A stretch of DNA of 64,000 nt, taken from an uncultured Syntrophomonadaceae bacterium. GTDB lineage: Bacteria; Bacillota; Dethiobacteria; DTU022. Location of the stretch: the NCBI GenBank assembly GCA_964506505.1, contig CAZDKY010000021.1, forward strand, positions 4,010 to 68,009, in the 5' to 3' direction. Shown here in pieces: positions 52,989-59,127 of this stretch (position 1 is the stretch's first letter; each line of letters begins with the position of its first letter). A program made the translations under genes and the position numbers. The notes beneath the pieces are model-generated. The model was not told the origin of the DNA, did not search any database, and was given only the letters and a program-made list of their open reading frames with translations.

Positions 52989-53421
52989 GACTGCACCTCC
53001 TTCACTTATTTGTCATTGATTTATCCAGGGATGCCTGATATGCAATCCGGTGGAAAAGTTTCTGTAAGCTGAATGAGAAACAACTAGTCAGCTTCCACCG
53101 TTTTTATTTACTTAAGTCCGGCCTTTCAATCTCTTTCTTTTTTTAGCCCGTCTTCTTTTTTTCCGCTGTCTTTTAAGTTGTTTTCTCGTTTTTTCATGTG
53201 CCATAGTATGTAGCATTCCCCTCCTTTGCTTTGATTTCAGGTATTATAATGGCTGTAAAGCCTTAAAACCCATGTGTAATTATAACACTGCTTAGCCGGT
53301 GAAAAAAGAGTTATTTTTTTTAACTCGAAATACCATGTTATTTAGAAAGGAAAAAAAAGGCCAACAGAGAAAGATTAATAATATAATAAATTATAACAGT
53401 TAAGTGGGGAGGAACAAGTTG

Positions 53422-55641
53422 ATGGAAATAAGCCAGAATGCCCGGATTACTTATGAAAAGCGTTATTTAATCAAAGATGAAAAGGGCAACCCGGTTGAAA
53501 CTCCGGAAGATTTGCTACGCAGGGTAGCGTCCAATATTGCCCTGGTGGAAAAAGAATACGGGAAAAACGAAGATGAAATCAAGGCGATAGAAGAGAAATT
53601 TTTCACCATTATGTCCGAGGCTCTTTTTATGCCCAATTCTCCCACGCTGATGAATGCAGGCCGAGAGCTACAGCAACTGAGTGCCTGCTTTGTCCTCCCA
53701 CTTGAAGATAGTATGGAAGGCATCTTTACCGCACTGAAAAATATGGCCCTGGTCCAGAAAACCGGCGGAGGGACAGGATTCTCCTTCGATCGCCTGAGGC
53801 CCAGTAATGATATTGTCAAGTCAACCAACGGTGTGGCCAGTGGTCCCATATCCTTTCTAAAAATATTTGACGCCGCTACTGAAGCAGTTAAACAGGGCGG
53901 AACTAGACGCGGAGCTAACATGGGATCTCTTATCTATAATCACCCAAACATAATTGAATTCATTTGCTGCAAGGAAAAAGAAGACGAAGTCAACAACTTC
54001 AATTTATCAGTCACTGTATCCGACGAATTCATGCGCAAAGCAACCGGTGAAGATCCAGACCCTCTCTATACCCTGATCAACCCCCGTACCAGGCAGCCCT
54101 ATCTCGATCCTGAGAGTGACAATGAGGTCCAGCTCGATGCCCGTGAAATCTTTGATCTGATTGTCCAGAAGGCCTGGGGAAAGGGCGATCCAGGAATTAT
54201 TTTTATTGAACAGATGAACCGCTTCAACCCCACCCCACAAATTGGCCTTTATGAAACAACCAACCCCTGCGGCGAACAACCGCTGCTTCCTTACGAAGCC
54301 TGCTGTCTTGGTTCCCTGAACCTGGGCAAATTTGTTAAACAGGATCAACGGATTGATTTTGAACACCTGGCAGAAATAGTTCAAATTGCCGTCCGATTTC
54401 TGGATAATGTAATTGATGCCAGCAATTATGTAATTCCAGAAATCGCTAAAATGCACAAGGAGGGCAACCGCAAGATCGGCCTGGGGATCATGGGCTGGCA
54501 TGATATGCTGGTCCGCCTGGGCCTTAATTACGATAGTGAAGAAGCACTTGAAACAGCTGAAAAAGTCGTATCTTTCATCAACAGCGAGGCCAAGAAGGAA
54601 TCGGTTAAACTTGCTGCAGAAAGAGGCACATTCCCCAATTTCAAGAACAGCGTATACGACACCGGCAGGGAAGAAGATCACGTTCGCAATGCGACCAGGA
54701 CTACCATTGCTCCTACCGGGACCATTTCCATCCTGGCCGGAGCCAGCAGTGGTATTGAACCTTATTTCAGCATTGCTTTCATTCGTAAAAATATCCTTGG
54801 CGGAGTTGATTTACCCGAAGTCAATCCGCTATTCCTTGAAATAGCAGAAAAAGAAAGTTTCTACAGTGATGAACTGATCCGTGAGATCGCCGTCAGCGGG
54901 AAAATACCCGCCGATGCCAGTGTTCCCGAAAAATACAAGGACCTTTTCAAAACAGCCATGGATATCGATTACAGTTGGCATGTCAGACATCAGGCTATAT
55001 TCCAAAAATATACAGACAATGCCGTCAGTAAAACAATCAACCTGAGCAAAGATGCTACGGTAGATGATGTAAAAAATGCATACATAACAGCCTGGGAAGC
55101 CGGTTGTAAAGGCATAACTATCTATCGAGACACTTCGCGGACCAAGCAGGTGCTAAATGTCGGAGACGGCAACCCTGAAGAAAACCTCAAACCGATCGAG
55201 CGGCCAAAAACCCTGAGCGGACGCACCACAAGCATTCGGACAGCCCTGGGCAATCTCTTTGTCACCGTCAATACCGCCGATGGCAAACCTTTTGAACTCT
55301 TCGCCCAGATCGGCAAGGCAGGAAGTGATGTCATTGCTTTTACCGAAGCGATCGCCCGCCTCATTTCGCTGGCCCTGCGTTGCGGTGTAAGCGTCGACGA
55401 AATTGTTACCCAGCTTGAAGGAATCGGCGGTGCCCGTTCAGTTGGATTCGGTCCGAACCGGATCATGAGTGTACCAGATGCTGTTGGCCAGGCTCTCCAC
55501 AAACTGGCCAGCGCTGAAAGCAACAATGTTATTCAGGGTCACAGCGAAAATCGTGAAATCTGTCCTGAATGCGGCACATGCGCCCTCGTCAGAGTTGAAG
55601 GCTGCCTGAAATGTGAAGCATGTGGTTATAGCGAATGTTGA
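53422..55641 (+). CDS. nrdJ: Adenosylcobalamin-dependent class II ribonucleotide reductase with C-terminal TSCPD/zinc ribbon
   Basis: PNSPTLMNAG, LSACFV, TNPCGEQPL, TIAPTGTIS, CEACGYSEC. Confidence 0.95.
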   Translation: MEISQNARITYEKRYLIKDEKGNPVETPEDLLRRVASNIALVEKEYGKNEDEIKAIEEKFFTIMSEALFMPNSPTLMNAGRELQQLSACFVLPLEDSMEGIFTALKNMALVQKTGGGTGFSFDRLRPSNDIVKSTNGVASGPISFLKIFDAATEAVKQGGTRRGANMGSLIYNHPNIIEFICCKEKEDEVNNFNLSVTVSDEFMRKATGEDPDPLYTLINPRTRQPYLDPESDNEVQLDAREIFDLIVQKAWGKGDPGIIFIEQMNRFNPTPQIGLYETTNPCGEQPLLPYEACCLGSLNLGKFVKQDQRIDFEHLAEIVQIAVRFLDNVIDASNYVIPEIAKMHKEGNRKIGLGIMGWHDMLVRLGLNYDSEEALETAEKVVSFINSEAKKESVKLAAERGTFPNFKNSVYDTGREEDHVRNATRTTIAPTGTISILAGASSGIEPYFSIAFIRKNILGGVDLPEVNPLFLEIAEKESFYSDELIREIAVSGKIPADASVPEKYKDLFKTAMDIDYSWHVRHQAIFQKYTDNAVSKTINLSKDATVDDVKNAYITAWEAGCKGITIYRDTSRTKQVLNVGDGNPEENLKPIERPKTLSGRTTSIRTALGNLFVTVNTADGKPFELFAQIGKAGSDVIAFTEAIARLISLALRCGVSVDEIVTQLEGIGGARSVGFGPNRIMSVPDAVGQALHKLASAESNNVIQGHSENREICPECGTCALVRVEGCLKCEACGYSEC

Positions 55642-55812
55642 GAATGTGCAAATATTTAATAATTATTTACGTATAAAAAAAGGAAATTTGACCTATATGT
55701 AGAATTACTGGTAATTGACAATTGAGATACTGCTTTTCAGTAATCAGACCGATGATCGATTTGCAGCAACAAGCCGGATCTACCGGCTGAAGTTTACTGC
55801 GGGAGAACTGCC

Positions 55813-56460
55813 ATGGCCAGTGAAAACGAGGATAAAGTCAGGAAAATTGAAGGGATTATTTCACAAATCCAGGGAGTTGTGTCCGGACGTCTGGTTTGTG
55901 AAGATGACAAGATTATAGAGATTCACGTTCTTGCCGATTCGACCAGGTCCCCAAAACAGGTTGTCCGGGATATTGAATCGGCCGTTCTGATAAAACTGGG
56001 TATTGAGCTCGATCGTAAACAGATCAGCGTAGCCCAATTGGAACCGGGAGTGGCTCCTCCTCCTTCCAGCGGGATCAGACTTCTGCTGAAAAGTATTAAT
56101 TACAAGACTGAAAACGGCCAGGCCACGGTGAATGTAGTAATAAGCAGCGAGGATGCCCAGTTTTCTGCAACGGCTGCCGGTCAAAACAACCGGCAGAATC
56201 GTCTGCGTCTGACAGCATCAGCGACACTTTCAGCAATTGAACAATATCTCAAAGTGGACAACATTTTGTTTGTCGGCGACATTCAGGGGACTGCCCTGTA
56301 CGGTTGTGAACTGGTTATTGTCGCCGTGTGCCTGCATCTGGATAACCGTGAGGAAATTCTGCTGGGTACAGCTCTGAACAGAGGTGACGATCTCGAATCG
56401 GCTGTCCGGGCCTCCCTGGATGCTATAAACAGAAGGCTCTCAGTATTTACCCATAGTTAA
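55813..56460 (+). CDS. Conserved hypothetical cytoplasmic protein upstream of the peptide/HD-GYP/DUF5317 genes
   Basis: Clean 215-aa ORF with RBS; IEIHVLA...RSPKQVVRDIES and AVRASLDAINRR segments. Confidence 0.7.
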   Translation: MASENEDKVRKIEGIISQIQGVVSGRLVCEDDKIIEIHVLADSTRSPKQVVRDIESAVLIKLGIELDRKQISVAQLEPGVAPPPSSGIRLLLKSINYKTENGQATVNVVISSEDAQFSATAAGQNNRQNRLRLTASATLSAIEQYLKVDNILFVGDIQGTALYGCELVIVAVCLHLDNREEILLGTALNRGDDLESAVRASLDAINRRLSVFTHS

Positions 56461-56582
56461 AAATTTGAAGCCGGCGGCGGTTATAACACAGGGATTATTT
56501 TTTATACGAACGGAATCATAGCGGAGCGTTGCCAGCGGCTATAGCGGAAAACCGCTGAGCACCTGGAAAAGGGGGCTATCCC

Positions 56583-56660
56583 ATGAAGCTCACCCTGATA
56601 AAGGCGCTCATCGCACTGTCCGGCCTGATTCTCGCCGGTGCTGCGGTTTATAAGTGGTAA
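56583..56660 (+). CDS. Unannotated 25-aa peptide MKLTLIKALIALSGLILAGAAVYKW
   Basis: RBS AAGGGGG 7 nt upstream of ATG; basic N-terminus, hydrophobic core, AGA then AVYKW; ends TAA-TAA. Confidence 0.7.
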   Translation: MKLTLIKALIALSGLILAGAAVYKW

Positions 56661-56721
56661 TAAGAGAAAATTAACTGCCGGCCGGTTTCAAATATATCAT
56701 CAGCAGGAGAGCCTTATAACA

Positions 56722-58041
56722 ATGGATAATCATATTCCCGTAAAAGCTCAGATTTTCATCACTTTACTTGCAGGAAGTACCGCTGCCATAATCGCATACG
56801 CGGCATCGGTAATGGACTGGAGCAAAGTAGAGTGGTTCCCGATTTTGGTTTTCCTGCTGTTACTTATCTTTTCTGATGTTTTTCCCGTTACCCTTCCCCG
56901 CGGTGGAAGTGTAACGGTAAGTTTTGCCACAATTGCTGCTTCTGTTCTTCTTTTTCAACCCTTGATAGTAATTGGAATTGCTGTTTCCTATGAATTATAT
57001 TTATTAATAAAAGATCAACCCCGTATAAAACATATCTTTAATATTTCTCAACTGGCAACCTCTACAGGGATCGCAGCGTTGCTTTATCAACAGTTATCAC
57101 CGACAACTTCCAATCTCTCTTTAAATCATTTCACCGCTTATATTGCTTCAGTGATCGTTTTTTTTATCTTAAACAGTGCTTTCGTTACCCTGATTTTAGC
57201 ACTTGTTCAGGAAGAAAAACCTCTTAATGTCTGGAGATTAAACCTTAAATGGAGTGCACTAACATTCCTGAGCATGGCTCCCCTGGGAGGGTTGATTGCT
57301 GTAATTTATATTAATATTGGTTTCTGGGGCCTGGTTCTTTTCCTGCTGCCGTTAATCCTGGCCCGCCATTCTTTCCAAACATACATGAATATGAGGCAGA
57401 CCTTCCTTGACACCATTAAAAGTCTTTCTGTAGCCATTGATGCCAAAGATCCTTACACTAAAGGCCATTCCTCACGGGTAGCAGATTATGTTGTCTCCCT
57501 GGCCCGCGAACTGAAATGGCCGGAAGATCGGGTTGAATTCATACAATATATATCCCTCATTCATGATGTGGGCAAGGTGGCCGTTCCTGAAGATATCCTA
57601 AAAAAATCCAGCCTGTTGTCCAAGGAAGAATTTGCCGTGATGAAAACCCACAGTGAAGCAGGAGCCAATATTTTGAAAGGGATTAAATATTTTTCCACAG
57701 GTGTCGATATCATCAGGCATCATCATGAACGCTGGGATGGAAATGGCTACCCCGATAAAATCGCCGGAGAAGAGATTCCCGAAGGAGCTCGAATCCTGGC
57801 CGTGGCTGATGCTTTCGATGCCATGACCAGCGATCGACCCTATCGTAAATCGCTTAGCTACGAGGTGGCTCTGCGGGAACTGCAGGACTGTGCTGGGACC
57901 CAATTTGATCCTAAAATTGTCAATGCTTTTATTAAGATATATCCACAAATCAAGGACAACTTGTCTGAAGAACCCGACGAAGAAAAATATGAAGAGTACC
58001 TGACAGAGAAAAATATCTGTGCCAAAACCACCTATCACTAA
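56722..58041 (+). CDS. Multi-TM sensor domain + HD-GYP cyclic dinucleotide phosphodiesterase
   Basis: About 7 TM segments, then DAKDPYTKGHS, HDVGK, HHERWDGNGYP, ADAFDAMTSDRPYR. Start ATG 56722 (RBS CAGGAG). Confidence 0.9.
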   Translation: MDNHIPVKAQIFITLLAGSTAAIIAYAASVMDWSKVEWFPILVFLLLLIFSDVFPVTLPRGGSVTVSFATIAASVLLFQPLIVIGIAVSYELYLLIKDQPRIKHIFNISQLATSTGIAALLYQQLSPTTSNLSLNHFTAYIASVIVFFILNSAFVTLILALVQEEKPLNVWRLNLKWSALTFLSMAPLGGLIAVIYINIGFWGLVLFLLPLILARHSFQTYMNMRQTFLDTIKSLSVAIDAKDPYTKGHSSRVADYVVSLARELKWPEDRVEFIQYISLIHDVGKVAVPEDILKKSSLLSKEEFAVMKTHSEAGANILKGIKYFSTGVDIIRHHHERWDGNGYPDKIAGEEIPEGARILAVADAFDAMTSDRPYRKSLSYEVALRELQDCAGTQFDPKIVNAFIKIYPQIKDNLSEEPDEEKYEEYLTEKNICAKTTYH

Positions 58042-58074
58042 GACTTACCTTAAATATTCAGGGGAGGCTGATTA

Positions 58075-58626
58075 TTGCTCTGGGAAGCAGTTTTACTGGG
58101 GTTGGCTATTGGCTGGTTCCGGAAAGGTTCATCCAAAAATTTAAACCATGTGAATCTAATAGGATGGCCAATAATAATTTTAGCTCTTTTGATTCAGGCA
58201 ATCATTCGCCTTGACTTCGCTTATTTTGATGGTACTTTCGAATTACTCTATTCATACTTCTATGTTTTTTCTTTTGTTTTTCTTCTTGTTGTTGTATTTT
58301 TGCAAGAAAAGCAGACTGGAATCATTATTTTTGGGCTTGGCATTCTTCTTAACCTGCTGGTGATAACTGCCAATGAGGGCAGAATGCCCGTAAATCCTTC
58401 TGAAATGCCACTCCAAAAAGCTAATGAATTAAGTTCGGGAACAGCAAGTCCCTTCCATACAGTCATGGATGAGGATTCGTGGCTGGCATTCCTCGGTGAT
58501 CACATTTCTTTGCCTTACAGTAAAAACAGATTAATCAGCATCGGTGACATTATTCTCGGGGCCGGCATTGCAATTTACATTCAGCATAACATGCTGAAAA
58601 AAAATAAATTAAGAAAATGGCGTTAA
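58075..58626 (+). CDS. DUF5317 family membrane protein
   Basis: NLLVITANEGRMPV, FLGDHI, ISIGDII motifs. Confidence 0.8.
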   Translation: MLWEAVLLGLAIGWFRKGSSKNLNHVNLIGWPIIILALLIQAIIRLDFAYFDGTFELLYSYFYVFSFVFLLVVVFLQEKQTGIIIFGLGILLNLLVITANEGRMPVNPSEMPLQKANELSSGTASPFHTVMDEDSWLAFLGDHISLPYSKNRLISIGDIILGAGIAIYIQHNMLKKNKLRKWR

Positions 58627-59127
58627 AATTGCTCCCCAGTTGCCGTTATTTTTGCCTTATTCAAATCGTACATTATTCTCAATTGGCAAAAAGTTTAACT
58701 AAAATAGATCATAAAATTATGTATGTTGGTAAAAATTGCATACAAAAAATGGCAGGGAACGCTCAATTAGGACAAAAAATGACCACCCGAAGGGGTGGTC
58801 GTTATCTTAAAAAGCCTTATTTCATGGTGCCGGAGACCCGTCCCCTATAGTTTGCACTGAACATGGACCTAAAATATTACTACAAGTTTAAACAAGTCAG
58901 GAGGGAGACTTGGTTTGAAATGTATAGTTTTAATTAAATTTTGATTCTGTTTGTTTCCAAGAACTAACCATATCGCTTGCAATGATTATTGAGCAAATCA
59001 TACTTATTAACTTAATTTATATATTATTAGACTTCATGAAGCCAGCTTCACCATCCGATGGATGTAAATGGTAATTTGCATTTTCAGGATAGTTTCTAAG
59101 TTTATACTTAAATTCATTATCAATAGG

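Follow-up and report, generated by a model that had tools for sequence, protein, structure and literature searches.

The window analysed here is a stretch of 64,000 nucleotides (nt) of DNA from an uncultured Syntrophomonadaceae bacterium (contig CAZDKY010000021.1). It contains a cluster of four consecutive frames on the plus strand. A gene for a hypothetical protein (hyp215) is followed by a small open reading frame (sORF), by the gene of a membrane-bound HD-GYP phosphodiesterase with a MASE9 domain, and by the gene of a DUF5317 membrane protein:

55813..56460, plus strand: hyp215, 215 amino acids (aa), soluble, first gene of the cluster; no Pfam or NCBIfam family
56583..56660, plus strand: sORF, 25 codons and a stop codon; ATG start, AAGGGGG 8 nt upstream
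56722..58041, plus strand: MASE9/HD-GYP phosphodiesterase, 439 aa; ATG chosen as start, AGGAG upstream; MASE9 at approximately residues 1-230
58075..58626, plus strand: DUF5317 membrane protein, 183 aa; PF17248

A preliminary description of this DNA had drawn attention to an sORF with a good ribosome-binding site beside genes for an HD-GYP protein and DUF5317, and all of these parts are present where it had placed them.

The arrangement is not confined to the window. DUF5317 was detected in 15 of 41 genomes of the window's relatives (its own genome counted), and 12 of the 14 foreign loci offered enough upstream sequence. In all 12, hyp215, the HD-GYP gene and DUF5317 occur in identical order, and an ORF, 25-27 codons long and preceded by a Shine-Dalgarno sequence, lies between hyp215 and the HD-GYP gene; tblastn by itself recovered this ORF in seven of them. 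A phylum sample of 401 evenly drawn genomes provided 60 further DUF5317 loci from 60 genomes, which were picked by hand along the full score list. A MASE9-HD-GYP gene lies directly 5' of DUF5317 in 44 of the 60, and its stop codon often overlaps the DUF5317 start codon. The sORF was found in each of these 44 loci (39 by a hidden Markov model profile, the other five by reading of the frames). Scanning the contigs of named genomes yielded 17 loci, four of them already in hand; all seven new loci with sequence 5' of the HD-GYP gene carry the sORF. The labels of the named contigs with an sORF include Syntrophomonadaceae, Actinomycetes, Acidimicrobiia, Atribacterota and Thermotogaceae. Comparable sORFs at other DUF5317/HD-GYP loci, for which the preliminary description had advised to look, are thus present throughout the three samples, and about 70 related clusters from several phyla carry one. 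The region is partly N-masked in the Thermotogaceae and Atribacterota loci. There, the sORF occurs twice around a masked run (L042:2774-3151 and L044:2823-3133), which may represent a tandem duplication or an assembly artefact.

Family statistics were compiled from 60 rows, which correspond to 59 independent loci because one locus had been fetched twice. The sORF frame is uninterrupted at every locus, comprises 23-33 codons, and is preceded by a Shine-Dalgarno-like word in 59 of the 60 rows. Pairwise comparison of the 11 ungapped sORF sequences yielded 371, 285 and 750 differences at codon positions 1, 2 and 3, respectively. Counted as codons, these sequences have 424 synonymous versus 486 non-synonymous differences in the sORF frame; the corresponding values for the two other frames are 96 versus 882 and 43 versus 905. 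None of ten sORF products looked up in a collection of approximately 15 billion predicted proteins was present, and the product matches no Pfam and no NCBIfam family. The sORF is therefore a conserved gene that was missed by gene callers. In the closest locus (L027), the identities to the window are 92, 80, 68 and 89 % for sORF, HD-GYP, DUF5317 and hyp215, respectively; in the most distant family member (L017), they are 46, 44, 34 and 33 %. The sORF hence diverges about as fast as its neighbours and not faster, which indicates purifying selection rather than a diversification of the kind seen in pheromone groups. It is very likely that this small uncalled gene is a real part of the switch of a cyclic di-GMP (c-di-GMP) degrading enzyme.

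The contrary assumption is that the sORF is not translated and that the region is solely a structured non-coding RNA with an incidental ORF. An RNA structure that is both strong and conserved, and perhaps a discrete RNA (see below), would be in line with it. The frame is open everywhere and almost always equipped with a Shine-Dalgarno-like word, the excess of third-position differences and the many synonymous changes are specific for this frame, and although the codons differ, the peptide has been conserved from phylum to phylum. With these observations, an untranslated sORF is highly improbable.

The sORF is embedded in a structured RNA domain of approximately 230 nt (56463-56693), which is newly described here. 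Its elements, and a transcript contig that covers most of it, are:

56463..56483, plus strand: 5' arm of a long-range helix, begins just 3' of the hyp215 stop codon
56505..56585, plus strand: leader motif (alignments A3 and A7), ends at the Shine-Dalgarno sequence
56672..56693, plus strand: 3' arm of the long-range helix, 12 nt 3' of the sORF stop codon
56471..56680, plus strand: metatranscriptome contig from run X9, 210 nt, depth 23.6, 0 differing letters

In the minimum free energy (MFE) fold of positions 56458-56698, the two arms (56463-56483 and 56672-56693) form a helix of 21 pairs. The energy of this fold is -89.2 kcal/mol (z -4.08), and none of 200 shuffled sequences was as good. Across the 60 rows, the median z of the arm duplex energy is -3.2, and 48 rows have values below -2. 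The longest uninterrupted helix of cognate arms has a median of 13 pairs and at least 10 pairs in 57 of the 60 loci. For 708 non-cognate pairings, the median is 9 pairs with at least 10 pairs in 269 cases; the arm core CCGRC:GYCGG is common to many loci, which weakens this control. The arm sequences vary between lineages, and the helix that closes the domain covaries. In most loci, the 3' arm starts approximately 0-20 nt after the sORF stop codon; a terminator-like U-run behind it was not consistently present.

The conserved leader includes a GAGCGGAGCGG box and AGCGGA repeats. The order of its elements in the window is a AGCGGAGCG box (56520-56528), a hairpin, GAG and the Shine-Dalgarno sequence AAGGGGG (56569-56575). 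The stem of the hairpin is formed by positions 56533-56538 and 56552-56557, and its loop contains UAGCGGA (56542-56548). According to RNAalifold, four of the five stem pairs of the leader maintain pairing via two-sided changes. A search of the leader and the domain against Rfam 15 found no family at an expectation value (E) of 1 or lower; the sole row in 55600-58900 is a chance match of a snoRNA on the opposite strand inside hyp215. A covariance model of the leader (R1) matched a single place in its own genome (E 2.6e-10); in five other genomes, it had one significant match per genome, always at the sORF locus. One significant copy in six of six genomes, located at this locus, implies a private cis-element and not the signal of a regulon. 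In the four loci that lack hyp215 (L082, L087, L095 and L098), the leader was not seen by eye or by word count. The RNA domain is regarded as a candidate for a new cis-regulatory RNA and could be a riboswitch or a site for protein binding, with hyp215 as a candidate binder.

Both ends of the X9 contig lie within the helix arms, and its flanks are uncovered. X9, which represents one study, is the only RNA-library run that contained part of the stretch, and contigs of this kind cannot prove RNA ends or silent flanks; the contig is a hint to a discrete RNA. A small hydrophobic ORF within a long-range helix, possibly on a discrete RNA, recalls hok-type messages, in which a fold-back helix surrounds the ORF of a small hydrophobic toxin. 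By analogy, the sORF could be a type I toxin-like element, whose membrane-damaging peptide is encoded by an mRNA kept inert by the 5'-3' fold-back helix. Toxin loci are sporadic and often multi-copy, and the strict synteny across phyla and the single copy per genome do not fit this pattern. In addition, no antisense RNA turned up, although no search was aimed at antisense RNA. A toxin is thus a far-fetched explanation.

The protein encoded downstream of the RNA domain matches MASE9 (PF20972) with 56.5 bits (cut-off 24.3) over model positions 16-192 of 203, and HD_5 (PF13487) with an E of 8e-41; PF01966 and HDIG were also matched. The residues of the His-Asp pair (H281 and D282), of the HHE run (H334, H335 and E336) and of the GYP motif (G342, Y343 and P344) show little or no variation among 15 sequences. 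Judged from its sequence, it is a member of the MASE9-HD-GYP family and predicted to hydrolyse cyclic dinucleotides. It is of the same type as TM1467 from Thermotoga maritima and HdgA from Streptomyces venezuelae, for which the accessible part of the published account mentions no upstream small ORF, DUF5317 or hyp215 (10.1101/2021.11.05.467447). According to the same part of that account, MASE9 has eight membrane segments, two of them short, and outer loops that are short and poorly conserved. From these poorly conserved loops and from charged intramembrane residues, its authors argue that the ligand of MASE9 binds within the membrane; the input signal is given as unknown (10.1101/2021.11.05.467447). 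The preliminary description of an HD-GYP phosphodiesterase with roughly seven transmembrane segments was thus correct with respect to the catalytic domain, and the segment count has to be replaced by the published eight, as far as that source is accessible. MASE9 was found in 132 of the 401 genomes of the phylum sample; the genome of Thermotoga maritima, which served as a control, contains MASE9 as well as DUF5317. Five loci (L052, L071, L072, L081 and L036) have two tandem HD-GYP genes between the sORF and DUF5317; both genes have MASE9 regions in L052, L071, L072 and L036, and the second gene of L081 is without a MASE9 match.

DUF5317 occurs in 129 of the 401 genomes. The window protein matches PF17248 with 104.1 bits (cut-off 25) over model positions 2-151 of 151. 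Residues N93, N100, G102, M104, P105, H128, D142, S155, G157 and D158 are invariant in 15 aligned sequences, which bears out the earlier remark that the polar motifs of DUF5317 look conserved. An AlphaFold2 model with a predicted local distance difference test score (pLDDT) of 90.5 contains five predicted helices of 14-21 residues and a short one at residues 20-25. The last two helices flank a loop of 55 residues (100-155), which has short strands and carries the invariant polar residues. This loop probably faces outward, because of the positive-inside rule and because DUF5317 is fused in frame behind the cytoplasmic HD-GYP domain at one locus (L090:2754-4556), where MASE9-HD-GYP and DUF5317 share one open frame of approximately 600 aa. 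The fusion could reflect a sequencing error that deleted a stop codon; genome G328 of the same genus has a separate DUF5317 frame of 194 aa. In a comparison of the DUF5317 model with the PDB (Foldseek, VIA-align), there was no row with E of 0.001 or lower, and the best Z was 6.9 over 56 helical residues. Searching the ESM Atlas with positions 58075-58623 of the window retrieved DUF5317 clusters only, plus one cluster of DUF5317-major-facilitator transporter fusions, which comprises 52 proteins and is commonest in Chloroflexota. A literature search found no paper that names DUF5317 or a small ORF at MASE9-HD-GYP genes.

The sORF does not accompany DUF5317 as such. In the 16 DUF5317 loci of the phylum sample that lack MASE9, there was no match to the sORF profile. 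In these, DUF5317 lies for example beside a 219-aa HD-domain protein and glutamate dehydrogenase (L053 and L057), beside two REC-GGDEF-type proteins (L055), or beside an HD_5/Spo0E-like protein and a STAS protein (L058). Conversely, 23 MASE9 loci that do not adjoin DUF5317 were fetched, nine with other outputs and 14 with HD-GYP. Nine of the latter 14 keep hyp215, the RNA leader and the sORF; DUF5317 is located elsewhere in the genome in four of these nine and was not found in the genome in five. The proposal that DUF5317 is a processing or export enzyme for the peptide was consequently not upheld: the protein has no fold match in the PDB, and the sORF persists where DUF5317 is elsewhere or not found.

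The earlier characterization of the first gene as a conserved hypothetical holds, as hyp215 is kept in 12 of the 12 family loci and in 40 of the 44 phylum loci and has no family match. There are 881 homologues with E of 1e-5 or lower, one of them from a Carboxydocella species. Among the 120 homologues listed, all legible names are "hypothetical protein" except for a truncated JGI name, "predicted nucleic-acid" (P0117), and PF08502 is found on two; the hyp215 protein of the window matches no Pfam family at E of 0.01 or lower. Its AlphaFold2 model (pLDDT 88) consists of an N-terminal alpha-beta-beta-alpha-beta domain and a C-terminal duplicated beta-beta-beta-alpha domain. In this model, the C-terminal 125 residues resemble the fold of the amino-acid-binding allosteric regulatory domain of LeuA and citramalate synthase (PF08502), with 3f6h_B as a match (TM 0.66 by target, root-mean-square deviation 3.6, 126 columns) and 3fig_B as another; weaker rows are double-stranded-RNA-binding-domain-like. 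Unlike LeuA and citramalate synthase, hyp215 has no catalytic domain and a different N-terminal domain.

The peptide encoded by the sORF of the window has a Lys-rich start, a hydrophobic helix, an LAGAA core and a tail that ends in Tyr-Lys-Trp. Most relatives carry LAGGA in place of LAGAA. The 60 peptides have a length of 23-33 residues (median 25). Each contains one to three Lys or Arg residues within the first eight positions, and 56 contain neither Asp nor Glu. The maximum Kyte-Doolittle mean over 15 residues ranges from 1.99 to 2.99 in all 60 rows. An AGGA core is present in 41 peptides and replaced by small-residue variants in the others. The tail comprises 4-5 residues in 51 of the 60 and contains an aromatic residue in 57, Lys or Arg in 47, and Trp in 46. 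The last nine residues are the most conserved part of the peptide.

With its n, h and c regions and the small-residue core, this composition fits a Sec-type signal peptide, which signal peptidase I would cleave. The peptide might accordingly be an exported signal: signal peptidase or DUF5317 would cleave it behind the LAGG/LAGA core, such that an aromatic and basic tail of 4-6 residues is released and sensed outside. With MASE9 or the outer DUF5317 loop as the sensor, cell density or the state of the envelope would then be coupled to cyclic-dinucleotide hydrolysis. The loop of DUF5317 with its invariant N, H, D, S and D residues would lie on the side where the C-terminus of the peptide emerges, given the topology deduced above. 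If the X9 contig represents an abundant discrete message, it would also recall the precursor-peptide genes of pheromone loci and of loci for ribosomally synthesized and post-translationally modified peptides (RiPPs). Several findings do not agree with an exported signal. Pfam and NCBIfam searches detected no AgrD, AgrB, histidine-kinase family, exporter or known peptidase in the cluster. The same type of tail recurs from Bacillota to Atribacterota and Actinomycetes, and the divergence of the peptide does not exceed that of the neighbours, unlike that of pheromone specificity groups. The outer loops of MASE9 are reported to be short and poorly conserved. Moreover, the sORF stays with hyp215 and MASE9-HD-GYP in genomes where DUF5317 was not found, and DUF5317 has no protease-like fold match. 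An exported signal is therefore considered unlikely, and a role of the peptide as a membrane partner is more probable than one as a secreted pheromone.

The preliminary description had gone further and compared the locus to agrD/agrC/agrB. The order of a small peptide, a polytopic membrane receptor and a small polytopic membrane protein is indeed similar to that in agrBDCA. In contrast to agr, the locus has an HD-GYP hydrolase as its output, its peptide is conserved and not diversified, and a Cys or Ser from which a thiolactone ring could form is missing from the tail of the window peptide. The AgrD family (PF05931) was not matched, and the membrane protein matches PF17248 only and not AgrB (PF04647). 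As a counterpart of AgrC, the receptor was rejected as well, since it contains MASE9 and HD_5/HD only and no histidine kinase output (HisKA/HATPase_c). The conservation pattern argues against a strain-specific pheromone. The parallel was abandoned, as no agr family was detected, the tail type is conserved across phyla and the divergence is like that of the neighbours; quorum sensing of the agr type is unsupported.

A more elaborate scheme would give DUF5317 a catalytic role. It could be a new kind of membrane peptidase that uses the Asn/His/Asp/Ser/Asp loop to cut LAGGA at the outer face of the membrane, whereupon the tail or the helix would switch MASE9-HD-GYP. A new structured RNA, with the AGCGGA-repeat leader inside a long-range helix, would control how much peptide is supplied, in response to hyp215 or a small molecule. 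In this full form, we consider the scheme rather improbable.

The interpretation that we favour, tentatively and at slightly less than an even chance, is that the sORF product is a translated single-pass membrane micro-protein of 25 residues that acts together with MASE9 and DUF5317 in the membrane. This choice is based on the conservation of the sORF at a fixed place, its coding constraint, the membrane-type features in 60 of 60 rows and the neighbour-like divergence, and further on the tight pairing of HD-GYP and DUF5317 and on the conserved RNA unit. It also fits the published argument for a MASE9 ligand bound inside the membrane, as far as that account is accessible. Within a four-gene module of hyp215, sORF, MASE9-HD-GYP and DUF5317, the peptide would insert into the membrane, and its helix would pack via the small-residue LAGGA face on the transmembrane bundle of MASE9, on DUF5317, or on both. 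The short aromatic and basic tail would lie close to the conserved DUF5317 loop, on the surface of the membrane. So placed, the peptide would determine or indicate the state of the membrane sensor, through which the hydrolysis of cyclic dinucleotides by the HD-GYP domain is governed. On the mRNA, the long-range helix encloses a domain of approximately 230 nt, which comprises the AGCGGA-repeat leader, the ribosome-binding site and the entire ORF. With this RNA unit, the peptide can probably be processed, stabilized or translationally controlled independently of the enzyme genes.

When the MASE9 domain, DUF5317 and the sORF product were co-folded, the score was 0.08 relative to a mark of 0.32; the peptide is shorter than those of the calibration set, and this outcome speaks neither for nor against binding. 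Several observations weigh against a membrane micro-protein. The hydrophobic stretch is short, with approximately 14-16 residues from Lys7 to the tail, or 21 if Lys7 lies within the membrane. LAGGA, the most conserved element, also suits a small-residue cleavage site. All nine MASE9 loci with other outputs are devoid of the sORF and of hyp215. Among the 14 MASE9-HD-GYP loci not adjoining DUF5317, four that lack both hyp215 and DUF5317 also lack the sORF, and one is ambiguous. MASE9 in general can therefore do without the sORF. Finally, two genomes of one family in which DUF5317 was not found (L115 and L118) have an ORF of just 20 codons, whose product is too polar to span the membrane. These loci (L115:1279-1504 and L118:1300-1500) retain the C-terminal Gly-x-aromatic-Lys-Trp, the leader motif and a long-range helix of a G-run and a C-run. 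Selection may therefore act on the C-terminus or on its translation as such.

This last point leads to the possibility that the sORF encodes a cis-acting leader peptide, whose translation matters, perhaps through pausing at the conserved C-terminal end. A ribosome at the stop codon would adjoin the 3' arm and open the helix, which would alter the processing, termination or translation of HD-GYP and DUF5317; with a ligand or hyp215 bound to it, the AGCGGA leader would control ribosome entry. Such a mechanism would account for the strong conservation of the last nine residues, for the 20-codon forms that keep the C-terminal end together with the RNA features, and for the proximity of the 3' arm to the stop codon. 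It would likewise agree with an RNA leader that runs directly into the Shine-Dalgarno sequence, exists once per genome, and was not seen in the four loci without hyp215. An arrest peptide has no need for the hydrophobic N-terminal two-thirds that are present in all 60 rows, and the U-run expected of a terminator is not consistently found behind the 3' arm. Arrest sensors of the SecM/MifM type detect insertion forces with a chain that extends beyond the ribosome tunnel. A chain of 25 residues is still inside the tunnel at termination, which excludes sensing of this kind. A leader peptide is unlikely on balance.

Known systems resemble the locus in part. MgrB and SafA are small membrane proteins that modulate the sensor PhoQ. 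Like the peptide proposed here, they are single-pass proteins of a few dozen residues that are encoded within their own regulatory system, and helix-helix contacts have been proposed for them. They differ in that there is no sequence relation, that the partner here would be MASE9-HD-GYP plus DUF5317 and not a histidine kinase, and that the sORF is located in a structured RNA; for the sORF product, binding is a prediction. With TnaC, SecM/MifM and hok mRNA, the locus shares a short ORF with a conserved C-terminal end 5' of regulated genes and a long-range helix. There is no homology to these elements, the membrane-type N-terminal part of the peptide is conserved, and neither a Rho or terminator signal nor an antisense RNA was identified at the locus.

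Directly 5' of the cluster, separated by an AT-rich spacer, lies a gene for a class II-type ribonucleotide reductase with a C-terminal TSCPD domain (53404-55641). A G+C-rich hairpin of eight pairs is located 155 nt 3' of DUF5317 (58781-58800) and was scored as a minus-strand terminator; it may end the operon from both sides. A scan for promoters and terminators between 55600 and 58900 gave counts that were not above those of shuffled sequences.

The analysis adds partners to MASE9-HD-GYP enzymes that are not mentioned in annotation or in the literature retrieved, namely an uncalled gene of 25 codons, a structured RNA, hyp215 and DUF5317. These partners offer a testable handle on the control of c-di-GMP phosphodiesterases of the MASE9 type. 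The sORF adds a well-supported family to the bacterial micro-proteins, and the RNA leader is a candidate for a new class of cis-regulatory RNA. If DUF5317 were indeed a peptidase of the kind considered above, peptide signalling would be wired to c-di-GMP turnover in approximately one third of the sampled Bacillota genomes and in several other phyla.

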